Below are positions 5,418 through 33,343 of a stretch of 40,916 bases of DNA, in pieces. Source of the stretch: a virus. Position 1 is the stretch's first letter; every line of letters starts with the position of its first letter. Where the stretch lies: IMG/VR virus record IMGVR_UViG_3300029516_000012. One strand, given 5' to 3'. The notes beneath the pieces are model-generated. The model did no database searches and was not told where the DNA came from. It saw only the letters and a program-made list of their open reading frames with translations. A program made the position numbers and the translations under genes.

Positions 5418-5560
5418 GCCGCCCCGCAGTTGCAGGAGACGGGGGTGGCCCAATGAGAGGAAACGCATGGCGGGATATTCCCCCGCCGCCTCTCAAACAA
5501 AAGATCAGGGCTAGGCCGACGGGCCGAAAAGGGAGGTGCCACCTTACTCCCCTGCCCTGA
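5418..5560 (+). promoter_or_regulatory. Structured GC-rich 5' leader upstream of the antirepressor gene
   Basis: Nested stems: 5418-5425/5442-5449 (contains a G-T wobble valid only in + sense), 5455-5460/5489-5494 enclosing 5469-5474/5482-5487, and 5505-5511/5554-5560 enclosing 5514-5517/5522-5525 and 5531-5535/5547-5551. Confidence 0.35.
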
Positions 5561-5604
5561 GTCAACATAAAGGTGGGAAATAAAATAGAAAGGGTGGTAT
5601 CTAC

Positions 5605-6577: not shown

Positions 6578-6997
6578 ATGGCTGCACGGCTGACAGACAG
6601 ACAAAAAAAGAAAATTGTGGCTGATTATCTGGAGACCGAGAGCTATAACGCCACGGCGAAAATCAATGGGGTTTCCAAAGATACCGTTAAGCGTGTTGTG
6701 TTAGGTTGCGAAGGATTCGCCCAAAAGGCGCAACAAAAAAAGAGACAAAACACGCTTGATATGCTGGCCTTCATGGAGACCCGCAAGGAGAAGATGCAGG
6801 AGGCGATCGACCTACACCTGATGGCGCTGACAGACCCGGAAAAGATAAGTGATGCCGGTTTGTCTCAAATCGCCACTTCTTTCGGGATTATCGTTGACAA
6901 GGCCACAAAGAACACAGCCAGCGGGAACGACAGTTTGAATAAACTGGACGGGCTGTTGAAGGAGTTCAGGGATGCTGTTAAGTCTGAAACAAACTGA
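6578..6997 (+). CDS. terS: Terminase small subunit (putative)
   Basis: 139 aa, immediately upstream of and overlapping terL. The N-terminal HTH-like text is YNATAKINGVSKDTVKRVV. Confidence 0.6.
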   Translation: MAARLTDRQKKKIVADYLETESYNATAKINGVSKDTVKRVVLGCEGFAQKAQQKKRQNTLDMLAFMETRKEKMQEAIDLHLMALTDPEKISDAGLSQIATSFGIIVDKATKNTASGNDSLNKLDGLLKEFRDAVKSETN

Positions 6998-11900: not shown

Positions 11901-12830
11901 ATGGCTGCTACGAAAGTTGAAAGCCTTACCAATCCGAGGGACTCTCTGCCCAACACTTATACCAGCGTGACGGCCCGCGAGGTGGATTTTGTCACCCGAT
12001 TCAATGATAACTGGGAAGCGCTGCGCACCATCCTGGGCATCATGCGTCCTATCCGCAAGACCCCCGGCACGCAGCTGATCTCTTATACCGCTGACGTAAC
12101 CCTGGAGGACGGCGACGTGGGCGCTGGCGAGGTCATCCCGTACAGCAAGGCGACCATCACACAGGCCACCAAGGCAGACCTGACCATCAAGAAGTATGCC
12201 AAGGCCGTTCCCATCGAGGACGTGGACAAGTATGGCGCGGAGATCGCCGTGGAAAAGAGCGACGACGCTTTTCTCACTAAGCTCCAGAACGTGGTGTTGG
12301 GGGACTTCTACACCTTCCTGAACACCGGTTCTCTCACCGGCACCGCAACCACCTGGCAGGCCGCCCTTGCAAAGGCCCAGGGCGAGGTTCTGAACAAGTT
12401 TGCGGTTATGGCGAAGGATGTCACATCTGTTGTTGGATTTGCCAACATCCTGGACGCCTATGACTACCTGGGCACGGCGGACATTACTGTCCAGACCCAG
12501 TTCGGCATCAACTATGTCAAGGACTTTATGGGGTATTCCACTCTGTTCCTGCTTCCTGCTACTGTTTCCGGCAATGCAGCCATTGCGCGGAACACTGTGA
12601 TCGCCACCCCTGTGGAGAATATCGACCTGTATTATGCCGACCCTGGCGACAGCGAGTTTGCCCGGCTTGGTCTGAATTATACGGTACAGGGCGAGACCAA
12701 CCTGATTGGCTTCCACGCCCAGGGCAACTACTCCACCGCCGTGGGCGAGACCTACGCCATTATGGGCATGAAGCTGTGGGCCGAGTATCTGGACGGTATT
12801 GCCAAAATCACCGTTTCAGCGGGGGAATAA
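11901..12830 (+). CDS. Major capsid protein
   Basis: 309 aa directly after the scaffold gene and followed by a stable stem (CCCCCG/CGGGGG, 12833-12865). Size and position fit an HK97-fold major capsid protein. Confidence 0.8.
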   Translation: MAATKVESLTNPRDSLPNTYTSVTAREVDFVTRFNDNWEALRTILGIMRPIRKTPGTQLISYTADVTLEDGDVGAGEVIPYSKATITQATKADLTIKKYAKAVPIEDVDKYGAEIAVEKSDDAFLTKLQNVVLGDFYTFLNTGSLTGTATTWQAALAKAQGEVLNKFAVMAKDVTSVVGFANILDAYDYLGTADITVQTQFGINYVKDFMGYSTLFLLPATVSGNAAIARNTVIATPVENIDLYYADPGDSEFARLGLNYTVQGETNLIGFHAQGNYSTAVGETYAIMGMKLWAEYLDGIAKITVSAGE

Positions 12831-23492: not shown

Positions 23493-23855
23493 ATGAAAAA
23501 CATCAACTGGAACGAGCTCACCCCCGCCTGCTACGCGATCGCCAACGCTAACGATGTAGATCTGGGCGTAGGCGGCAGCATGGTGCAGAACAACATTCGA
23601 CACAGTAAGGCGGTGGACATCGGCGCGGAAAATCTGCCTGTAGCTTTCCGGCCTGACTGGGATGCCCTGGGCGCTGATGCAGATCTGGCTGCGGAAAATG
23701 ACTCGTTTAACGTCTGGGTCAGGAAGCGCCAGGGTAACGTCAAGGCCCTGGCCGCCCTGTGGAACGCAAAGGACTATCAGGGCATGGTTGAGCTAATGGA
23801 GAACGCCGCCGACCCCGGCCCCATCAACGGTGAGAAGCTCGAAAACCATGAGTAA
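23493..23855 (+). CDS. Hypothetical protein
   Basis: 120-aa ORF between the fibre genes and the endolysin. No transmembrane segment. Confidence 0.55.
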   Translation: MKNINWNELTPACYAIANANDVDLGVGGSMVQNNIRHSKAVDIGAENLPVAFRPDWDALGADADLAAENDSFNVWVRKRQGNVKALAALWNAKDYQGMVELMENAADPGPINGEKLENHE

Positions 23856-25224
23856 GTACATAGCGGTCATCACCAGGGCGGACATCACCCGCGCCGCCCT
23901 GGTGGAGGCCGGGGGGCGGTCTATGGAGCAGGTCAAGGCCGCCTGCGGGTGCCAATATATCCTAAACGCCTGGTTTTATGACACAATCACCGGGAGGCCC
24001 GTCGGCAACCTCAAGATTGATGGCACGGTCAAGGCGGACGCCGGATGGAACTGCCAGGGCCTCACCTGGGACGCGGGCGAGGACATCCGCATGGATCTGA
24101 TCCCGGATCGAGGCAGAGCATCCTATATCAGCGGCGTGGAGTTGCTGACGCCCACCAGGGGACCAGGTAAGGCCCTCAGCTACTCCCCGGAGTACGGGGG
24201 CACACGGGGGCGCTCCGCCGTCCTGCTGGCCGGGGCGCGGGTGATCCTGTACTGCTCCGGCGACGGCACGGCAGACGCCAAGACACCGGAAGGGCTGCGA
24301 GACGAGCTGGTGAGCATCGGCTGCCGGTACGACCAGGCGGCCAACCTGCGGGCCCTGGGCCTCGACGCGGGCAGCTCCTCTAACTGCGACTTTGGGGACG
24401 GCCAGCGTATCAGCAACGGTAAGCGGGTCAAGGGTTATCTGTGTATCTGGACAAAACAGGACGGCCAGGAGCCGCCGGAACAGGAGGACAAGCCTATGAG
24501 CAAGCACACTGTATGCCTAGACCCTGGGCACGGTCCGGGCAACGTCAACGGCTCCCCGGATGGCACCTACAAAGAATGGGAGTTTACGTGGGATATGGCC
24601 CAACGCATCAAGCCATTGCTGGAGGCCCAGGGGGTGGGCGTGGTGCTCACCAAGACGGCGGACAATTACCCCAGCCTGACTGAGCGGGCCAACATCAGCA
24701 ATAAGGCGCAGCCGGATTGCTTTGTGAGCATCCACACCAACGCGGCCGGGGAGGGAGGCTGGTCAAGCGCGTCCGGGCTGGAGATCTACACCAGCGCCGG
24801 GCCCATGACGGCCCAGCGCAATGTGCTGGCCTCCAAGCTGGTCAACGCCTTCCACGCCGCCGGGGTGTCCCTGCGGAGTAAACCTATCAAGCACAAGCTG
24901 TATACTGTGCTTGCCAAGACCGACGCCCCCGCCGCGCTCATTGAGTATGGCTTCCATACCAACAAGATGGACACGGAGTATCTCAAGGATAGCAAGTACC
25001 GGGACAAGCTGGCCGAGGCCACCGCAAAGGGTATCTGTGAGTTCCTGGGCGTAGCGTGGCAAGGCGAAACGGGAGAGGACAATGCGGAGGACACCCCGGA
25101 CATTTGGGCCGCTGATGCGTGGCAGAAGGCCAAGGACAAGGGCGTGCTGGATGGCACCCGGCCCCGCGATAATATGACCCGGCAGGAGCTGGCCGTCGTG
25201 CTGGACAGGCTTAATCTGATTTGA
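23848..25224 (+). CDS. Endolysin: N-acetylmuramoyl-L-alanine amidase (Amidase_3) with an extra N-terminal domain and a C-terminal SLH-like repeat
   Basis: The central text HTVCLDPGHGPGNVNG...FVSIHTNAAGEGGWSSASGLEIY is Amidase_3-like. The C-terminal DIWAADAWQKAKDKGVLDGTRPRDNMTRQELAVVLDRL is SLH-like. The roughly 220-aa N-terminal domain (ILNAWFYD...GRPVGNLKIDG) may be a second enzymatic domain. Confidence 0.85.
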   Translation: MSKYIAVITRADITRAALVEAGGRSMEQVKAACGCQYILNAWFYDTITGRPVGNLKIDGTVKADAGWNCQGLTWDAGEDIRMDLIPDRGRASYISGVELLTPTRGPGKALSYSPEYGGTRGRSAVLLAGARVILYCSGDGTADAKTPEGLRDELVSIGCRYDQAANLRALGLDAGSSSNCDFGDGQRISNGKRVKGYLCIWTKQDGQEPPEQEDKPMSKHTVCLDPGHGPGNVNGSPDGTYKEWEFTWDMAQRIKPLLEAQGVGVVLTKTADNYPSLTERANISNKAQPDCFVSIHTNAAGEGGWSSASGLEIYTSAGPMTAQRNVLASKLVNAFHAAGVSLRSKPIKHKLYTVLAKTDAPAALIEYGFHTNKMDTEYLKDSKYRDKLAEATAKGICEFLGVAWQGETGEDNAEDTPDIWAADAWQKAKDKGVLDGTRPRDNMTRQELAVVLDRLNLI

Positions 25225-25238
25225 TGGAGGTACATATC

Positions 25239-25511
25239 ATGGACATTTCTTCTTTGGGCATCACCGGAGTGGCGGTTATCACTGTGATCTGCTTCCTGGT
25301 CGGGCAGTTGGTCAAGGCCACCGGCCTGGACAACAAGTGGATTCCCATCATCTGCGGTGCGTTTGGCGCGGCGCTTGGCATCCTCGGCATGTTTATCATG
25401 CCAGAGTTTCCAGCCTCGGACTATTTGACCGCCGCCGCCGTTGGCATCGTCTCCGGCCTTGCGGCCACTGGTATCAATCAGGTCTATAAGCAGTTGACTA
25501 AGGAGGGCTGA
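25239..25511 (+). CDS. Holin
   Basis: ATG at 25239 sits 8 nt after GGAGG. The 90-aa protein has hydrophobic segments (GITGVAVITVICFLVG; IPIICGAFGAALGILGMFI; AAAVGIVSGLAATG) and follows the endolysin. Confidence 0.75.
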   Translation: MDISSLGITGVAVITVICFLVGQLVKATGLDNKWIPIICGAFGAALGILGMFIMPEFPASDYLTAAAVGIVSGLAATGINQVYKQLTKEG

Positions 25512-25846
25512 TGCCCATGGAGTGGGTAGGCCCACTGATTTCCGGGGCTGCCGTGGTTCTGGTGGCGATCATCGAGGCTGCGGCGGCCCGAGAGCGGAAG
25601 CGCATCAAATCTGACAACCAGAAGAGCGATGCCCTTATGAATGGGGTACAGGCTCTGCTAAGACGTGAAATCATTGCCGAGTACAACCATTATACTGAGC
25701 AAGGACATATCCCGATCTATGGTATAGAAAACGTGCTGGATATGTATAACGCATATAAGGCATTGGGCGGAAATGGCATGGCGACGAAGCTGGTAGAGGC
25801 CTTGAAGCAACTGCCCACAGAACCGCCGGAGGGCGAAAGGACGTGA
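25511..25846 (+). CDS. Membrane-anchored protein of the lysis cassette (BhlA-like topology)
   Basis: N-terminal transmembrane segment WVGPLISGAAVVLVAIIEAAAA followed by a charged helix. Translationally coupled to the holin gene. Confidence 0.55.
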   Translation: MPMEWVGPLISGAAVVLVAIIEAAAARERKRIKSDNQKSDALMNGVQALLRREIIAEYNHYTEQGHIPIYGIENVLDMYNAYKALGGNGMATKLVEALKQLPTEPPEGERT

Positions 25847-25850
25847 CTGA

Positions 25851-26102
25851 ATGAGCGCAAGGGCGAAGTTACCGGATCCGCTGGATAAGCTCTTGCGCTC
25901 TGAGCTGGAAACGGCCATCAAAGAGGCCTCGTTGTATCGAGACGATGAGTTGATAGCCCGCCGGTACATTATCGAAAAATGGCCGCAGATGGATATTGCG
26001 GCAGAGCTTGGATGGCGTAGGGCAACGGTAGGCGACCACATCAAGAACATCTTGCCCCGCGTGTCCGACGTTGCAACCAAGCTATACACAATCCGTACAT
26101 AA
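25851..26102 (+). CDS. Small sigma-70 region-4-like HTH protein
   Basis: 83 aa. DDELIARRYIIEKWPQMDIAAELGWRRATVGDHIKNI resembles a sigma region 4 / LuxR-type HTH. Confidence 0.45.
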   Translation: MSARAKLPDPLDKLLRSELETAIKEASLYRDDELIARRYIIEKWPQMDIAAELGWRRATVGDHIKNILPRVSDVATKLYTIRT

Positions 26103-26111
26103 GACGTACAT

Positions 26112-26150
26112 AACCCCGACTGGAACCGAACCCAGCCGGGGTTATTTTAT
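26112..26150 (+). terminator. Rho-independent terminator closing the late/lysis operon
   Basis: AACCCCGACTGG-N8-CCAGCCGGGGTT (one mismatch) followed by ATTTTAT. Confidence 0.7.
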
Positions 26151-26166
26151 GCGACAATATAGACAT

Positions 26167-26227
26167 GGAGGACGTGAGGATACAGGGTTGGTACACGTCG
26201 CCGCCCTCCTCACGGACTCCTTATTTT
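26167..26227 (+). promoter_or_regulatory. Second terminator/attenuator-like hairpin upstream of the cargo cassette
   Basis: GGAG-GA-CGTGAGGA (26167-26180) pairs with TCCTCACG-GA-CTCC (26207-26220) across a tandem GA/GA internal loop. It is followed by TTATTTTAT, the same tail as the terminator at 26144. Confidence 0.4.
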
Positions 26228-26395
26228 ATGGACAAGGACGTGTTGGATATGACTCTAATCGAGAGGATGGTAGCCGCTGGCATGTCCCGCGATTGTGCCG
26301 CCGAAACAGCGATGTGGTACATGGCACAGGGAGATGACGATGGACTGGAGGACTATGTGATCGCGCTGGAGACAAGCCATGTGGAGAAACCATAA
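26228..26395 (+). CDS. Small hypothetical protein (start uncertain: 26228 or 26249)
   Basis: Track ORF 26165-26395, but its first 20 codons overlap the hairpin. The C-terminal text is MTLIERMVAAGMSRDCAAETAMWYMAQGDDDGLEDYVIALE. Confidence 0.35.
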   Translation: MDKDVLDMTLIERMVAAGMSRDCAAETAMWYMAQGDDDGLEDYVIALETSHVEKP

Positions 26396-26756
26396 CGAGA
26401 ACCCGGACGGGCGCAACGTGGGAGATTGTACTGTGCGGGCCATCTCCACGGCCCTGGGGCAGGATTGGGAGACGACCTATGCCGGGCTGGCCCTGCAAGG
26501 CTACCTGATGGGTGATATGCCGTCAGCCAACCACGTGTGGGGGGCCTACCTGCGCAGCCGCGGATTTGACCGGGACATGATACCCAACTCCTGCCCAGAC
26601 TGCTACACGGTGGCCGACTTTTCCGCAGAGCACCCCCATGGGACCTATATCTTGGCCCTGTCCGGCCATGTGGTGTGCGTGCAAAACGGAGACTGGATTG
26701 ACACCTGGGACTCCGGCGGGGAGATACCACTCTACTACTGGCACAAGGAGGGATAA
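26379..26756 (+). CDS. Hypothetical protein with a papain/transglutaminase-like Cys...His...Asp arrangement
   Basis: 125 aa. NVGDCTVRAIS (Cys17), LSGHVVCV (His97), IDTWDSG (Asp110). This is a pattern reading only; no family was confirmed. Confidence 0.55.
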   Translation: MWRNHNENPDGRNVGDCTVRAISTALGQDWETTYAGLALQGYLMGDMPSANHVWGAYLRSRGFDRDMIPNSCPDCYTVADFSAEHPHGTYILALSGHVVCVQNGDWIDTWDSGGEIPLYYWHKEG

Positions 26757-26759
26757 GCG

Positions 26760-27212
26760 ATGCCATATCAATATGTGCCCGGCTATCAGCCGTACCCTTA
26801 CCAGCCGCCCATGCCGGATCAGCTTGCGCAGCTCCGTGGGGCGCAGTATCAGCCCATGCCGCAGCAGATGCCGCAGGCACAGCCACAGCAGGCGCAGGCC
26901 GGCGGACAGAGCATGGTGTGGGTGAGCGGTGAGGCGGAGGCGATGGCTTATCTGGTGGCCCCCAACAGCGCCGTGGCGCTTTGGGACAGCAACTCGCCCA
27001 CCATCTATCTCAAGCAGGCGGATGCCTCGGGCAAACCGTCCATCAAGGTATATGACCTCGTAGAGCGCACCAGCGGAGCCAGAACAGCGCAAGCCCCCCA
27101 GGGTGTGGAGTTTGCCACAAAGGCCGATTTGGAGGCTCTTGCAGCCCGTGTGGATGCGCTGGCGGCCCCGAAAACAACTGCGAAGAAAAACGCGAAGGAG
27201 GATGCGGAATGA
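26760..27212 (+). CDS. Gln/Pro/Tyr-rich protein with a globular C-terminal half
   Basis: 150 aa. 15 Gln and 11 Pro in the first 50 residues (MPYQYVPGYQPYPYQPPMPDQ...), then MVWVSGEAEAMAYLVAPNSAVALWDSNSPTIYLKQADASGKPSIKVYDL. Confidence 0.6.
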   Translation: MPYQYVPGYQPYPYQPPMPDQLAQLRGAQYQPMPQQMPQAQPQQAQAGGQSMVWVSGEAEAMAYLVAPNSAVALWDSNSPTIYLKQADASGKPSIKVYDLVERTSGARTAQAPQGVEFATKADLEALAARVDALAAPKTTAKKNAKEDAE

Positions 27213-27430
27213 ATCCCTTTTTCGGAGTCATGGGCGGCGGTGGCCGTCCCAACATGATGCAGCAGTTTCAACAGTTTATGCAGCAAATGAAGGGCAAAGA
27301 CCCCAATGCTATCATCAATGAAATGGTCTCAAGCGGAAAAATCTCGCAGGAACAATTAAACCACGTCCAACAGCAGGCCCAGCAGATGTCTGGCATGTTT
27401 GACGGGATGCGGGGAATGTTCGGCAAGTGA
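27209..27430 (+). CDS. Small Gln/Met/Gly-rich protein
   Basis: 73 aa. MNPFFGVMGGGGRPNMMQQFQQFMQQMKGKDPN...QQQAQQMSGMFDGMRGMFGK. The ATG overlaps the upstream stop. Confidence 0.5.
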   Translation: MNPFFGVMGGGGRPNMMQQFQQFMQQMKGKDPNAIINEMVSSGKISQEQLNHVQQQAQQMSGMFDGMRGMFGK

Positions 27431-27477
27431 TCAAAATCCCGGCCGGGTTTTGAAAATAAAAATAAAGGAGAATTTAC

Positions 27478-28206
27478 ATGAGTCTTTCTTCTGACGGCGG
27501 CACCGTTATGACGATGCCGGTTCAGCCTGCCTATCAGGGCGGCAACGGCGGTTTTGGATGGGGCGGGGACTGGTCCAGTTGGATCATCCTGTTCCTCATC
27601 TTCGGCCTGTTTGGCGGTTGGGGCGGCTATGGCGGCTTCGGCGGTGGAAACGGCGTGAACGGCCCCGGCTTCCAGGGGTACGCTACCCGCGCTGATATCA
27701 ACGAGGGCTTTGCCCTGAACGGCCTCCAGAACGGCCAGGCCTCCATCCGGGACGCCGTGACCAGCGGATTCCACGGTGTGGATACCGCTGTGTGTAACCT
27801 TGGCTATCAGACCCAGGCGGGCTTCAATGCCCTTGGCGCTCAGTTGGCCTCCTGCTGCTGCGACACCCGGGAGGCGATTCAGGGTGTGCGGTACGACCTC
27901 GCCACCACCGCCTGCGCTACGCAAAACACCATCCAGAATACCACTCGGGACATCATCGACAACGCCAACGCCAACAGCCGGGCGATTTTGGATTTCCTGA
28001 CTCAGGACAAGATCGCTACTTTGACTGCTGAGAACCAGAGCCTGAAGTTCCAGGCTTCTCAGGCGGCCCAGAATGCTTTTATTACCGCGAACCAGGAAGC
28101 CCAGACCGCCGAGTTGATCCGCCGCATCAACCCCATGCCTGTGCCGGCCTATCAGGTCCCCAATCCCTACGCCGGCTGCGGGTGCTATAATACCTGTGGA
28201 TGCTAA
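27478..28206 (+). CDS. Gly/Trp-rich membrane protein with Cys clusters
   Basis: 242 aa. ATG follows AAAGGAGA. It has one hydrophobic segment WSSWIILFLIFGLFGGWGGYGGFGGG, a CCC triplet (LASCCCDTRE), and ends AGCGCYNTCGC with 4 Cys in the last 10 residues. Confidence 0.6.
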   Translation: MSLSSDGGTVMTMPVQPAYQGGNGGFGWGGDWSSWIILFLIFGLFGGWGGYGGFGGGNGVNGPGFQGYATRADINEGFALNGLQNGQASIRDAVTSGFHGVDTAVCNLGYQTQAGFNALGAQLASCCCDTREAIQGVRYDLATTACATQNTIQNTTRDIIDNANANSRAILDFLTQDKIATLTAENQSLKFQASQAAQNAFITANQEAQTAELIRRINPMPVPAYQVPNPYAGCGCYNTCGC

Positions 28207-28269
28207 AACCCAATACATCAACTTCCGAGGATTCCTTGGATGTTCGGCCCCGTGCCGATTTTGAACCAT

Positions 28270-28300
28270 GCGGCGGGGCAATAGCCTCGCCGCTTATTTT
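28270..28300 (+). terminator. Rho-independent terminator inside the cargo cassette
   Basis: A 10-bp stem GCGGCGGGGC-AATA-GCCTCGCCGC, with one G-T wobble valid only in + sense, followed by TTATTTT. Confidence 0.75.
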
Positions 28301-28340
28301 AACCTGGTCGATTTCGACCACTTTAGAAAGGAATGATTTT

Positions 28341-28763
28341 ATGGCTGAATTTACTGGCGTATTTGTTCAGCAGGTGGCCGCCGGGCAGAATGTGTCCTTT
28401 ACTGAGACGCCTGTCAGTGGCTCTAACTGCATTGTCCACCGGGATGGCGCTGGGATTGTCACCCTCCGGGGGCAGACCAACCAGTGCCGCGCCCGCTACA
28501 AGGTCGTGTTTGGCGGAAATATTGCGATTCCCACCGGCGGGGCAGTTGGCCCGATTTCCCTGGCGATCGCCGTTGAAGGGGAGCCACTGGGCAGCGCTAC
28601 CGCCACGGTGACCCCCGCCGCAGTAGGCGATTTCTTTAATGTATTCGCTGCGGTATTTGTTGAGGTTCCGCGCGGCTGCTGCGTGACGGTGGCAGTACGC
28701 AACATCAGCACAGAAACGATTGAGGTCAGCAACGCGAACCTCATTGTTGAGCGCGTAGCCTGA
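28341..28763 (+). CDS. Hypothetical all-beta protein (C1q/TNF- or BclA-C-terminal-domain-like pattern; unverified)
   Basis: 140 aa. The ATG at 28341 lies within track ORF 28200-28763. Alternating hydrophobic beta-strand text: IVTLRGQTNQCRARYKVVFGGNIAIP...ISLAIAVEGEPLG...CCVTVAVRNISTETIEVSNANLIVERV. Confidence 0.55.
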   Translation: MAEFTGVFVQQVAAGQNVSFTETPVSGSNCIVHRDGAGIVTLRGQTNQCRARYKVVFGGNIAIPTGGAVGPISLAIAVEGEPLGSATATVTPAAVGDFFNVFAAVFVEVPRGCCVTVAVRNISTETIEVSNANLIVERVA

Positions 28764-28777
28764 AAGGAGAGGATACT

Positions 28778-29179
28778 ATGAAAGCACTATACGAGCTGAA
28801 AGAAAAATTCGAGATGGAGCTGGAAGAGCTGGCCCGGAAGGGTGAACTGGGTGCGGGCGACCTGGAGCTGGCCCACAAGCTCACTGACACCATTAAGAAT
28901 ATCGACAAAATCTGTGCACTGGAGGATGACGACGGCTATAGCCGGGCCGGCGATTGGGAGGCCGATATGCGCGGTACTTATGGCCGCGGCTCCAGCTACC
29001 GTGGACGCAAGCGGGACTCTATGGGACGGTATAGCCGGGATGGCCGCATGGACGGTTATAGCCACCACAACGCCAGAGAGTCTATGATGGAGCTGGCCCG
29101 CGAAATGATGGAGAACACATCCAGCGAGAGAGAGCGCGAAGCCATCCGCCGGTTTATGACTGAACTGGAACGGGATTGA
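28778..29179 (+). CDS. Hypothetical protein with helical ends and an Arg/Gly/Tyr/Ser-rich core
   Basis: 133 aa. The central text is YSRAGDWEADMRGTYGRGSSYRGRKRDSMGRYSRDGRMDGYSHH. Confidence 0.6.
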   Translation: MKALYELKEKFEMELEELARKGELGAGDLELAHKLTDTIKNIDKICALEDDDGYSRAGDWEADMRGTYGRGSSYRGRKRDSMGRYSRDGRMDGYSHHNARESMMELAREMMENTSSEREREAIRRFMTELERD

Positions 29180-29185
29180 TAGGGG

Positions 29186-29533
29186 GTGACCCCTTTGCTT
29201 GACCGCAAGGAGATAGATATTGAGATTGCCCGACTGGAATATGGGGAGAGCAGTTACCCGGCCTACGCTAAGCTTGCTAACCTGTATACCATTCGGGATC
29301 GGATGGACAGGGAGGTGCATCCAGCACCATACGAGGTATCCTACTCCGCTGCTCCGGCAGCCCTCGAGGATTCCTCGGTAGTTGGGGAATATGGAGACAG
29401 TGATTTCCTGCGGGCTGTCTCCGGTGTTGACCAGCACGACGCCTGGGCCATCATGGATGACCTGATGGACACGTTGCACACCGTCAATCCTCGCGTGTAC
29501 GAGGGTGTAATGCGCAAAATACGGGCACTATAA
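29186..29533 (+). CDS. Hypothetical protein (start GTG 29186 or TTG 29195)
   Basis: 115-aa ORF, the last gene before a strong terminator. The text reads ...GDSDFLRAVSGVDQHDAWAIMDDLMDTLHTVNPRVYEGVMRKI. Confidence 0.55.
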   Translation: MTPLLDRKEIDIEIARLEYGESSYPAYAKLANLYTIRDRMDREVHPAPYEVSYSAAPAALEDSSVVGEYGDSDFLRAVSGVDQHDAWAIMDDLMDTLHTVNPRVYEGVMRKIRAL

Positions 29534-29534
29534 A

Positions 29535-29570
29535 TCTAGGCCCCCAAAAGAAGGGGGCCTAGACTTTTTT
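29535..29570 (+). terminator. Strong rho-independent terminator ending the cargo cassette
   Basis: An 11-bp perfect stem TCTAGGCCCCC-AAAAGAA-GGGGGCCTAGA followed by CTTTTTT. Confidence 0.85.
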
Positions 29571-29872: not shown

Positions 29873-30934
29873 TTAGCCAGTTTTTCGACTTCCACCACTA
29901 TTCCCACCAGTGCCATCTAAGAGCGCAATCCCGCTATGCAACACTGTTGCATCTGTATGTGTATAAATATTAGCCGTTGTTTGGATGTCCGAATGCCCCA
30001 TAAGTTCCTTTGCTACATTAAGCGGAACACCTGCACGTTGTAGATCTGTGCAAAAGGTATGCCTCAGGCAGTATGGGGTCAAATCCTTTGATACAGGGCC
30101 TAGCGTCCCCAGCTCCTTGCGGAAGCTTTTCCATGCCCTGCGCATGGCGCTCTCAGTTTGGATAACCCCATTTTGGTTCGGAAAAACCAGGGCGAACGGT
30201 TCGCCTTTTGCCTCCTTAAGCCGCCAGCCGAGATCACTATGGATGGGGATGTCCCGTATACCTGAACTTGTTTTCGGGCCTTTTACATCTCTGGAGCCGC
30301 TCTCTTTCGCTGTGTGGACGTGTATCTCGTTATGCTCGAAATCTACATCTGACCAAGTAAGGGCTGCCGTTTCTCCTGGTCTCATACCAGTATATAGTAA
30401 TGTGAGCACCCATAATCCGGCCCGATGGTGCTCAGCAACAGCCAAAATGGCCTTGCGCTCGTCCTCAGTGATAGAGCGTCTTTTCCCCTCGTGATAGGTG
30501 GGCAGCTCCAGTAGCTCGGCGGGATCGTATGGGATAAGGCGGGATTGCCTGGCCCTGCGGAACATCTCCTGCAACACCATGCGCAGTTTTTTTACATGGG
30601 ATGCAGAGCGCCCGGCCTGCCCGTTAAGGATGCGCTGGAGGTGCACGTCTTTAACATCCTTCAATTTCAAGTGACCAATAGCGGGCTTGATATAGTTATC
30701 GTACTTTTCATCGTACATTTTCAACGATTTAGCTGTGAGCCCTTTTGGCTCCTTGTAGAGCTCCAGCCATTGCTTATACCAGGCGTTGACAGTCATGGAG
30801 CCGCCTACGGTTTCCTCACCGCGCTTTGCGGCGGCCAGCTTGTCCGCTAGCTTTTGCAGTGCCTCCAGCTCCGTTTTCCCGGTAGCTTCATACTTTTTCC
30901 CATTGTAGCGAGCCGTTTTTCGGATGTAATCCAT
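29873..30934 (-). CDS. int: Tyrosine recombinase / phage integrase
   Basis: ATG at 30934 sits 8 nt after GGGAGG, inside track ORF 29873-30982. The C-terminal catalytic text is LRHTFCTDL ... LMGHSDIQTTANIYTH (HxxR ... Y), and the N-terminal text is SAM-like. Confidence 0.9.
   Translation of the reverse strand: MDYIRKTARYNGKKYEATGKTELEALQKLADKLAAAKRGEETVGGSMTVNAWYKQWLELYKEPKGLTAKSLKMYDEKYDNYIKPAIGHLKLKDVKDVHLQRILNGQAGRSASHVKKLRMVLQEMFRRARQSRLIPYDPAELLELPTYHEGKRRSITEDERKAILAVAEHHRAGLWVLTLLYTGMRPGETAALTWSDVDFEHNEIHVHTAKESGSRDVKGPKTSSGIRDIPIHSDLGWRLKEAKGEPFALVFPNQNGVIQTESAMRRAWKSFRKELGTLGPVSKDLTPYCLRHTFCTDLQRAGVPLNVAKELMGHSDIQTTANIYTHTDATVLHSGIALLDGTGGNSGGSRKTG
29890..29909. repeat. Direct repeat copy B (candidate arm-type site; overlaps the int 3' end)
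   Basis: See copy A at 29654-29673. Confidence 0.3.
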
Positions 30935-31003
30935 TGACTTTACCTCCCATTCTGGTAAAATAGAAGGGTGATATGGCGGCAAACCTTATCACCCCTATGT
31001 GAG

Positions 31004-32985: not shown

Positions 32986-32991
32986 CAAAAA

Positions 32992-33016
32992 CCGACGGGA
33001 GCGTCATTCCCGTCGG
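32992..33016 (+). terminator. Stem-loop after the Cro-like gene (weak terminator candidate)
   Basis: CCGACGGGA-GCGTCAT-TCCCGTCGG is a 9-bp perfect stem, but there is no clear U-tract. Confidence 0.4.
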
Positions 33017-33343
33017 CCTCTGCCCAAATTTGTTTACCCTATGTACCTTGCAGGCTTTCACCGCTTGTAATGACGCCACAAGCTTCTTGAGGCACCAAGC
33101 CACTTTTGCGGTTTTGGTTCCGCCAATGCCTTATCGCTGACAAGCCACAAGGAGTACTTGATACGGTGGGGTATGATTACCGGCATACCACCATGGGTTT
33201 TACCTCTTCTCTGAGTGCTCCGCCGTATCAGTTGCTACATTTTACGCCAGTTTACGTGCTTTGGCAACCACTATATGCGACCTTGCAGTAAGGGAGCAGG
33301 CATAGTCAAAAGTTGGGTCAAGTCGACCAACTCCTTTCTGTGC

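Follow-up and report, generated by a model that had tools for sequence, protein, structure and literature searches.

What is the function of the small, compositionally extreme genes lying between the lysis genes and the integrase gene of IMG/VR virus record IMGVR_UViG_3300029516_000012, and do these genes form one unit? The window, that is, the whole stretch of 40,916 nucleotides analysed here, is a siphovirus-type temperate phage genome in which the late genes run rightwards into the lysis genes. The original prediction had read the following 3.3 kb as a terminator-bounded cassette of seven proteins (g1 to g7) next to attP, possibly serving lysogenic conversion or a cross-linked envelope or spore-surface structure. 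Comparison with related loci identified the region of about 25.85-29.56 kb as a single RNA-gated accessory operon, conserved and horizontally mobile among tailed viruses that infect gut anaerobes, and not as a row of independent morons. The order of its members is fixed, starting with a helix-turn-helix gene and a RAGATH-31 RNA, followed by a small open reading frame (ORF), g1, g2, g3, g4, an attenuator-like RNA, g5, g6 and g7, and closed by a terminator. The helix-turn-helix gene, the small ORF and the two structured RNAs were absent from the original prediction. The features of the operon are as follows.

25851-26102, plus strand: p83, an 83-residue helix-turn-helix protein, sigma-70 region-4-like, conserved first gene of the unit
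26167-26220, plus strand: RAGATH-31 RNA (RF03101), a long hairpin and then UUAUUUUAU, located with a covariance model
26228-26395, plus strand: small acidic ORF of 55 residues, from the ORF list, conserved
26379-26756, plus strand: g1, 125 residues, phrog_3754, AlphaFold2 model
26760-27212, plus strand: g2, 150 residues, phrog_21718
27209-27430, plus strand: g3, 73 residues, phrog_22984
27478-28206, plus strand: g4, 242 residues, the signature protein, phrog_16490
28207-28340, plus strand: structured RNA of 134 nt in the g4-g5 spacer, from alignment and covariation
28270-28293, plus strand: third strong terminator, inside the cassette between g4 and g5
28341-28763, plus strand: g5, 140 residues, phrog_20016, AlphaFold2 model
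28778-29179, plus strand: g6, 133 residues, phrog_28802
29186-29533, plus strand: g7, 115 residues, acidic and helical, from the ORF list and homologues
29535-29563, plus strand: intrinsic terminator closing the operon, an 11-bp stem with 8 GC pairs, then a T run

The seven predicted ORFs were real, as all of them were present on the plus strand and colinear in relatives, with good ribosome-binding sites of the AGGAGG/GGAG type in front of each of g2 to g6. The genes are tightly spaced or overlapping, with distances of -17, 3, -4, 47, 134, 14 and 6 nt from the small ORF through g7. The start of g5 was set at the conserved MAEF start, which lies inside an ORF of 187 residues. Long antisense ORFs across the cassette, such as that at 27268-28281 on the minus strand, were regarded as the usual by-product of GC-rich coding DNA.

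The scan of IMG/VR with g4 as a query matched at least 579 siphovirus-like contigs, 80 of which were retrieved for the comparison of the loci. Every detected cassette gene had the same order and the same strand in all 80 loci, confirming that the genes travel together. Counting only the positions that could be evaluated on a sufficiently long contig, g1 to g6 were each found in 73-80 of 74-80 loci (g3 in 79/79 and g6 in 73/74). The corresponding figures were 67/77 for p83, 65/77 for the small ORF and 51/71 for g7, which was the least constant member of the unit. The order was also common to distant phages with an identity of only 30-50%, namely Dulem virus 33, Butyrivibrio virus Ceridwen, Dulem 35, Dulem 39 and the human-gut contigs L090 and L091. 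The cassette proteins of Ceridwen were 30-51% identical to those of the window, and the order g2-g3-g4-g5-g6 was kept at 24-50% protein identity, also after relocation to four genomic contexts.

Exchange of single members was seen at several levels. Among close relatives, g3 and g4 were the most conserved genes (median identity of 81% and 83%, respectively), and g5 and g6 were present as alleles that can be exchanged. Identity was at least 90% for g4 but below 70% for g5 in 9 of 26 loci, and the converse was found in 14 of 33 loci, with g4 below 80% while g5 was at least 83%. The Clostridium perfringens phage CPD1, Dulem 36 and bajarodcaudo virus 5 retained g2-g3-g4 with a different small protein after g4, composed of 125-139 residues with an N-terminal Cys/Gly-rich segment, a beta-rich region and a conserved ADQ(I/L)RSR motif. 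The replacement proteins of these three lineages are located as follows.

L002, 6544-6921: replacement protein after g4
L176, 6555-6938: replacement protein after g4
L177, 6746-7165: replacement protein after g4

The architecture of the replacement protein was reminiscent of an endospore-appendage-like subunit, but neither PDB nor Pfam returned a match. A ferritin-like reading of a 175-residue protein of CPD1 and a 259-residue protein of Dulem 36 likewise had no support from Pfam.

Next to g4 or g5, HNH endonuclease genes were inserted at varied points in Dulem 33, CPD1, Ceridwen, Bacteroides phage C3_41T2LP and the prophages of Dysosmobacter welbionis. Because such genes stand beside g4 in four lineages, the insertions suggest that the cassette is a conserved target in viruses that often co-infect. 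In several relatives, and not in the window, an HNH gene on the opposite strand with an adjoining int-alpA RNA was located between g3 and g4; other HNH genes adjoined g4 in CPD1 and C3_41T2LP and followed g5 in Ceridwen. The int-alpA RNA accompanied the HNH insert. The inserts between g3 and g4 were the following.

L001, 7047-7685, opposite strand: HNH insert between g3 and g4
L172, 9162-9920, opposite strand: HNH insert between g3 and g4
L053 and L068, about 6850-6920: insert of HNH gene and int-alpA RNA between g3 and g4

These data also bear on the view that the cassette is a loose set of unrelated accessory genes, such as morons or anti-defence genes, linked only through the sampling of close relatives. 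Such a set would agree with the occurrence of g1 alone elsewhere, the dispensability of g7, p83 and the small ORF in some loci, the independent recombination of the g5 and g6 alleles, and the reach of g4 alone into crAss-like phages. The retention of the g2-g6 order over that range of identity and after relocation, the joining of the genes by translational coupling or overlaps, and the presence of two conserved cis-RNAs at fixed positions make this explanation extremely improbable.

The first of the two RNAs, RAGATH-31, scored 81.6 bits in a match over the full length of its covariance model, above the gathering score of 71.8 (E = 1e-16). It occupied the same spot in front of g1 in 9 of 11 related loci; besides the window, nine loci gave 74.8-84.4 bits. 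The 5' boundary of the cassette is therefore this hairpin with its U tract and not a plain terminator as had been proposed, and a simple terminator scan at this edge detected only a weak hairpin at 26129-26143; the proposed strong terminator at the 3' boundary held (29535-29563). Because RAGATH-31 overlaps the first 18 codons of a 76-residue ORF starting at 26165, the small ORF probably starts at the internal ATG at 26228.

The second RNA occupies the g4-g5 spacer, which was more conserved than the flanking genes. It is composed of helix 1 (28221-28243), an invariant helix 2 (28244-28258) and the intrinsic terminator, the U tract of which runs into the ribosome-binding site of g5. RNAalifold analysis gave 23 pairs, seven of which had compensatory changes, and 7 of 8 pairs of helix 1 showed such changes. 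In the alignment, 99% of the cells were paired, compared with 30-44% when the partners were slid, and the folding z-score was -4.9. A covariance model built for this element (R1) located it directly after g4 in about 40 window-type (Oscillospiraceae-like) loci searched, with 61-134 bits, and gave weak matches at the same place in the distant loci L089, L090 and L091 (E = 0.007-0.06). Rfam contained no matching family; the Rfam model 'ALIL' at 28291-28369 scored 19.9 bits against a threshold of 50 and was disregarded. When the folding of the nascent transcript was followed, GGCCCCGUGCCG of helix 2 paired with the 5' arm of the terminator in an alternative 9-bp pairing. This antiterminator pairing was calculated at -24.9 against -16.9 kcal/mol, and persisted until the 3' arm was made. 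The element is thus a candidate for a new attenuator- or riboswitch-like RNA based on competition between an antiterminator and a terminator. As this competition takes place before g5, the expression of g5 to g7 is predicted to need regulated read-through. Compared with known RAGATH RNAs and attenuators, the 5' element is a true member of RAGATH-31 and the g4-g5 element shares the build of a stem-loop, a competing antiterminator and a terminator, but the latter stands outside any Rfam family.

Other ribozyme-like or orphan RNAs were seen near the cassette in relatives. In two distant relatives, the g6 homologue was immediately followed by RAGATH-21 (L089, 6097-6173; L090, 5745-5831), and two hammerhead ribozymes of type II were located at most a few kb from the cassette in Dulem virus 39 (L175, 9896-9963, minus strand, and 12105-12169, plus strand). 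In view of RAGATH-21 and the hammerhead ribozymes, the cassette genes may belong to the class described as 'genes associated with twister and hammerhead ribozymes'.

The neighbouring genes in the window are as follows.

23830-25224: amidase endolysin, at the end of the late genes
25221-25511: holin, at the end of the late genes
25511-25846: membrane/coiled-coil protein of 111 residues, after the holin gene
29873-30982, opposite strand: integrase, 340 nt downstream of the cassette

The cassette immediately followed the endolysin and holin genes on the same strand in the window, Dulem 33, Ceridwen, bajarodcaudo 5 and the D. welbionis prophages. CPD1 differed in that its lysis genes were located 3.5 kb upstream of the cassette, with about a dozen small genes between. 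In Dulem 35, the whole unit, which also holds the helix-turn-helix gene and two small membrane proteins, was found between the gene for a head-morphogenesis protein and the scaffold/major capsid genes. One of these two membrane proteins, a coiled-coil protein with a C-terminal transmembrane segment, had been read as XhlA-like, and the family search gave no support to this. The predicted position next to the attachment site (attP) was borne out in an integrated D. welbionis relative, in which the cassette lies at the prophage-host junction, with about 90 nt between its end and three tRNA genes that are followed by host genes. The close relatives of the window are prophages in Dysosmobacter and Evtepia (Bacillota). 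The host clade of the window and C. perfringens are not known to have an outer membrane.

No sigma-70-like promoter was found at 25.8-26.4 kb, in a crude scan tuned to sigma-70. Only a lytic cycle has been observed for Ceridwen, and its describers judged the phage to be virulent (PMC7372960). With a virulent phage among the carriers and g4 in crAss-like phages, the operon is not lysogeny-specific. The proposed role as a moron in lysogenic conversion or at the spore surface fits poorly with Ceridwen, the relocation in Dulem 35 and 39, the presence of g4 in crAss-like and archaeal viruses and the promoter result. Like morons and conversion cassettes, the operon stands at one end of the prophage, flanked by the lysis genes and the att site, and terminator-like hairpins form its bounds. 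It differs from them in a multi-gene order that stays fixed even in distant or virulent phages and elsewhere in the genome, and in boundaries that are conserved structured RNAs.

Two different prophages of D. welbionis (L172/L174 and L173) had the same layout over a stretch beginning about 1.2 kb upstream of the holin gene and extending through the amidase gene and the cassette to g5, and their g4 sequences were identical. Because of this identity of layout and of g4 in two prophages of one genome, a recent exchange of the lysis-plus-cassette module between them is suggested. One of the D. welbionis prophages had a P22-type portal and a protein of 1637 residues after the cassette.

The signature protein g4 (phrog_16490, E = 6.5e-92) is the phylogenetically broadest member of the operon. 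It is a membrane-type, coiled-coil and Cys-rich protein, and the hosts of the viruses that encode it belong to three phyla and two domains. A hydrophobic segment flanked by Gly, Trp and Phe (about residues 33-52) precedes a helical part of about 150 residues rich in Asn, Gln, Ala and Thr; the top 19-residue hydropathy was 1.64 at residues 36-54, followed by the long polar helical region. An invariant CCC (126-128), a P-x-P-AY motif and a C-terminal CGC tail are further features, and the CCC triplet and the ending AGCGCYNTCGC were exactly as first described. Several homologues had acidic residues before the hydrophobic segment and Arg after it. The hydrophobic segment, CCC, P-x-P-AY and the terminal CGC were kept across virus groups, except that the CGC was missing from the archaeal-virus versions. 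A possible likeness of the N-terminus to the 'tiny TM' (transmembrane) sporulation protein YjcZ was dropped, as NCBIfam gave no match.

At least 8000 protein clusters (90% identity) were related to g4, the named ones being from Dysosmobacter welbionis and Evtepia gabavorous. The tblastn search found homologues in C. perfringens phages, crAss-like phages, Bacteroides phage C3_41T2LP and two Methanomassiliicoccales-assigned viruses, and a query of the crAss type matched at least 597 IMG/VR contigs. Occurring in viruses of Bacillota, Bacteroidota and Methanomassiliicoccales, g4 is not tied to one envelope type. In the crAss clade, the conserved gene order was holin, LysB-like, gp67 (DUF7841 with an Arg/Gly-rich tail), g4, gp65 and gp64, of which gp65 was variable. 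DUF7841 was also assigned to one protein of C3_41T2LP, and no paper mentioning this family was found. The depositors had labelled the crAss homologues 'spike protein/glycoprotein' or 'outer capsid protein/viral fiber', and the archaeal-virus homologues phrog_16490. In the Methanomassiliicoccales-assigned viruses, the g4 homologues (L178, 5650-6573; L179, 5659-6540) stood beside a phrog_5302 tail protein. A reverse-transcriptase gene was located nearby in vir215, and the crAss-like cr53_1 was similar, with genes for a tail protein, reverse transcriptase, holin and g4. The annotated genes of cr53_1 (L087, 2847-6647) had in-frame stops under the standard bacterial code, consistent with stop-codon reassignment, and these were replaced by Gln for the alignments.

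The profile of g4 gave only weak matches against PDB (E = 0.013-0.2), all of them to the fusion peptide and helix A of influenza HA2. Like HA2 and the spanins (Rz/Rz1), g4 has a Gly/aromatic-rich segment, long helices of polar, heptad-like character and a tail that bears Cys, and it shares with the spanins the combination of an N-terminal anchor with a coiled coil as well as the frequent position adjoining the lysis genes. Unlike them, g4 has no second membrane anchor, and the cassette has no lipoprotein partner: no cassette ORF had a signal peptide or lipobox for a spanin-type partner, the related hosts being Bacillota. The crAss genomes, moreover, already carry a LysB/Rz-like gene besides g4.

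The product of g5 (phrog_20016, E = 8e-68) was modelled by AlphaFold2 from an alignment of 79 sequences with a mean confidence (pLDDT) of 91.4. The model showed a stand-alone TNF/C1q-like jelly roll of the class of the BclA C-terminal domain and ExsF, as had been guessed from its strand pattern. The best matches in the Foldseek search of PDB were the C-terminal domain of F-BclA, ExsF/BxpB/ExsFA and the C-terminal domain of BclA, followed by ligands of the TNF family. Their E-values were 3.5e-7 to 1e-4 with TM-scores of 0.70-0.77, the exosporium proteins lying at 3.5e-7 to 1e-5. The neighbours in BFVD were stand-alone proteins of 130-145 residues from uncultured gut sipho-, podo- and myoviruses (TM-score of 0.80-0.90). 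Identity to BclA and ExsF was only 9-17%, no match was found in sequence searches of Pfam and PDB, and the 140 residues contained no Gly-X-Y repeats. Cys114 was invariant, and Cys49 and Cys113 were nearly so. At least 8000 protein clusters (90% identity) were related to g5. The jelly roll of about 135-150 residues is shared with the exosporium nap proteins (1wck, 3twi, 8d02, 7r1m, 9h38 and 9h3d), which g5 does not resemble in standing alone without a collagen-like region or an exosporium-targeting N-terminus, and in being encoded by phages, including those of non-sporulating hosts. ExsF trimers bind the terminal peptide of a partner, according to the title of PDB entry 9h3d. This binding may serve as a plausible analogy for a contact between g4 and g5.

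The remaining proteins were of low complexity or had small domains. The first 50 residues of g2 (phrog_21718, E = 1e-34) contained 15 Gln and 11 Pro, exactly as first reported. This Gln/Pro/Tyr-rich N-terminus is followed by a small conserved domain (WV.GE..A..YLVAPN...L.DS....Y.K..D..G.P) and a C-terminal helix; the alignment reached CPD1, and no match was found in PDB or Pfam. The Gln/Met/Gly-rich g3 is helical (phrog_22984, E = 2e-33). The product of g6 (phrog_28802, E = 1e-12) has helical ends and a core rich in Arg, Gly, Tyr, Ser and Asp with a conserved RRDSMGRYS motif. Its identity across the loci was 35-100%, and homologues were found in Ceridwen, Dulem 33, Dulem 35 and L091. For g7, homologues were present in Dulem 33 and Ceridwen, and the family searches gave no match except for a marginal one in PHROG (E = 0.079). 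The PHROG families to which g1 to g6 belong (E = 1e-12 to 6.5e-92) are without annotated function, and nothing significant was obtained for g1 to g7 in the sequence searches of Pfam, NCBIfam and PDB. Hydropathy analysis detected no hydrophobic or signal segment in the cassette proteins besides that of g4. The weak family matches of p83 were KORA/Sigma70_r4, phrog_3512 'sigma factor' (E = 0.001) and TIGR02937 (E = 0.007). Homologues of p83 were found in Dulem 33 and, weakly, in Ceridwen (E = 4e-4), and a p83-like helix-turn-helix ORF was seen by eye, unscored, in Dulem 35 and bajarodcaudo 5. The small ORF, which had no family match, had been called as a gene of 56 residues in D. welbionis.

The protein g1 (phrog_3754, E = 8e-32) was central to the proposed cross-linking. 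The AlphaFold2 model from 56 sequences (pLDDT of 96.7) showed what appears to be a minimal papain-like hydrolase fold, with the triad at canonical secondary-structure positions: the N-terminus of a helix for Cys17, the beginning of a strand for His97 and the strand after it for Asp108. These three residues were invariant or nearly so in the alignments. Two members of the triad given in the original prediction thus stood, while the third did not, since residue 110 is Trp and the conserved acid is Asp108; Asp111 was nearly invariant. The papain-type half of the assignment was likewise supported by the model and the conserved triad, but the transglutaminase half was not, there being no match in sequence or fold. 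Indeed, no transglutaminase was among the 50 PDB matches listed by Foldseek for g1, and the Cys-His-Asp arrangement is common to all papain-like enzymes and not specific to transglutaminases. No PDB match reached E < 0.001. The best structural neighbour was the Josephin-2 deubiquitinase (E = 0.12, probability of 0.87, TM-score of 0.45), with Tae4, TssM and PaTox lower. Neither g1 nor 12 homologues matched a Pfam or NCBIfam family, including Peptidase_C39 and C39_2; g1 had no sequence match in PDB, and no transitive link to Pfam was obtained through longer relatives. With the hydrolases of clan CA (Josephin, C39), g1 shares the placement of Cys, His and Asp and the size of a minimal catalytic domain, but the low structural similarity and the lack of a fitting Pfam or NCBIfam family set it apart. 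The spacing of the triad resembles that of the C39 domain of ComA.

The g1 family comprised 1408 representative clusters, and a search with a concatenated g1+g5 profile returned relatives of g5 only. Since g1 occurs without the cassette among the early genes of Bacillus phages of the Tsamsa/Kirov type (some annotated as 'putative peptidase'), in Geobacillus phage GBK2 and in Lak megaphages, it is a loosely attached member of the cassette. In bajarodcaudo virus 5, a phage without g1, the gene after holin (L177, 3481-4347) presumably encodes the endolysin and combines Peptidase_C39_2 with a Cu_amine_oxidN1 wall-binding domain; a papain-like lysin thus stands beside the cassette.

In the cross-linking model of the original prediction, the prophage supplies an assembly for the envelope or the spore surface, which the lysogen expresses as a conversion cassette. 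A transglutaminase-like g1 would act on g2 and g3 as substrates rich in Gln and Lys, with g4, rich in Cys, and a BclA-like g5 as the other parts. The fold of g5, nearest to the exosporium BclA C-terminal domain, ExsFA and BxpB, agrees with this model, as do the conserved triad and papain-like fold of g1, the compositions of g2, g3, g4 and g6 resembling coat or matrix proteins, the conserved cysteines of g4 and g5, which could cross-link, and the position of the cassette as the last block before attR in the integrated relative. However, g1 has no similarity to transglutaminase or Tgl and circulates independently of the cassette, and the cassette is found in a virulent phage of a non-sporulating host and at non-att positions. 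The crAss-like and archaeal viruses with g4 also infect non-sporulating hosts. The lack of signal peptides leaves surface export unexplained, and no promoter was found in the sigma-70 scan. Because of the missing link to transglutaminases, the non-sporulating hosts, the virulent phage and the relocation, we consider this model highly unlikely. With the spore-coat cross-linking systems (Tgl/GerQ and ExsY/CotY), the likeness is one of composition only, a Cys-His-Asp protein standing by Gln-, Gly/Tyr- and Cys-rich proteins; g1 shows no detectable relation to Tgl or to transglutaminase-core folds, g4 gave no match to ExsY/CotY and many hosts do not sporulate.

The reading that we favour, with a probability of roughly 40%, is a late, membrane-anchored stalk-and-knob assembly of the lytic cycle, in which an oligomer of g4 would carry g5 as a head together with the low-complexity partners. 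The linkage to lysis and late genes on the same strand, the partners without signal peptides, and the presence in a virulent phage and in viruses of hosts with very different envelopes are the grounds for it. The operon would be transcribed late by read-through from the structural-lysis operon, and the two terminator-containing RNA structures would gate g1-g4 first and then g5-g7. The Gly/aromatic-rich segment of g4 would enter the cytoplasmic membrane with the N-terminus out and the C-terminus in, and g4 would oligomerise, probably as a trimer, via its long polar coiled coil. A g5 trimer may dock on g4, possibly on a Pro-rich Cys-bearing tail, by analogy with the ExsF/BxpB trimers that hold the peptide ends of their partners. 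The low-complexity proteins g2, g3, g6 and g7, being without signal peptides, would assemble around the complex on the cytoplasmic face, and g1 may process one of them. The complex could act at the membrane near lysis and egress or exclude further infection, with the g5 and g6 alleles setting the specificity.

Several points weigh against this assembly. We infer the topology in the membrane, the formation of trimers and the contact between g4 and g5, and the terminator between g4 and g5 argues against a simple 1:1 co-assembly. The likeness to HA2 is borderline and may be compositional, and we treat it as a resemblance of design and not as homology. The cassette does not always lie beside lysis genes, as it follows the gene for a receptor-binding protein in Dulem 36 and the integrase gene in Dulem 39, and the g4 locus of C3_41T2LP follows recombination genes. 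Comparison of crAss gp64, gp65 and gp67 with g2, g5, g6 and g7 by hhalign gave probabilities below 1%, so that g4 alone is shared with this clade. The promoter scan, being tuned to sigma-70, was also a crude one.

The positions beside tail genes bring in an accessory fibre of the virion, in which g4 would form the trimeric coiled-coil shaft and g5 the TNF-like distal knob, while g2, g3, g6 and g7 would help assembly. Adhesion to host cells or gut glycans would then explain the spread over virus morphotypes and host domains. TNF-like knobs on coiled-coil shafts are typical of viral fibres, and the Foldseek search with g5 also matched a short-tail-fibre domain of a cyanophage, the central spike knob of phi812 and the fibritin whiskers. 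Tail or receptor-binding genes adjoin g4 in Dulem 36, a phrog_5302 tail protein does so in vir335, and vir215 and cr53_1 combine this tail protein with a reverse-transcriptase gene, giving tail adjacency in four lineages in total. The cassette of Dulem 35 lies inside the head-gene module, the depositors' 'spike' and 'viral fiber' labels on the crAss and Bacteroides homologues point in the same direction, and the g5 alleles are swapped like receptor-binding heads. In contrast, a Gly-flanked hydrophobic segment of 20 residues is unusual in a soluble fibre, the shaft and the knob are separate polypeptides with a conserved terminator between their genes, and most genomes have the operon behind the lysis genes and not in the tail module. 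No structural annotation is attached to the matched PHROG families, and proteomic evidence for cassette-bearing phages was not found. We therefore regard the fibre as unlikely, but as the main alternative. Among known fibres with TNF-like knobs (P22-like tail needles, PRD1 P5 and fibritin), a coiled-coil shaft with a trimeric and variable jelly-roll head is the common design, here a predicted one; the separate g4 and g5 genes with their terminator, the membrane-type segment of g4 and the location mostly outside the tail module are the differences.

Taken further, the membrane-anchored assembly might represent a new virus-encoded membrane machine with a class-I-fusion-like trimeric stalk, an exchangeable TNF-like head, low-complexity adaptors and riboswitch-like control, acting in release, membrane remodelling or a superinfection step. 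This extension is rather unlikely; if true, the machine would be common to tailed viruses infecting Bacillota, Bacteroidota and methanogenic archaea of the gut, and would form a step beyond the holin-endolysin models.

No paper or curated family describing the cassette proteins was found. As judged from sequence and model comparisons, the operon appears to lie outside the known kinds of system, the closest of which share a fold or a design principle with it and none of which would include it as a member. If it is one functional unit, it would rank among the more widespread uncharacterised gene sets of gut viromes. The crossing of g4 between monoderm, diderm and archaeal hosts points to a general infection step at the cytoplasmic membrane or the particle surface that has had no name so far. 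The operon also gives the orphan motifs RAGATH-31 and RAGATH-21 a defined genetic context, and the trigger of the candidate attenuator or riboswitch class could reveal what these phages sense. Butyrivibrio fibrisolvens with Ceridwen and D. welbionis J115 with its prophages are hosts in which these proposals can be tested.

Two further orphan motifs were found in the window outside the operon. The int-alpA RNA was located at 5504-5573 on the plus strand, and the FuFi-1 RNA was detected with 126 bits at 32986-33144 on the minus strand, in the lysogeny/early region.

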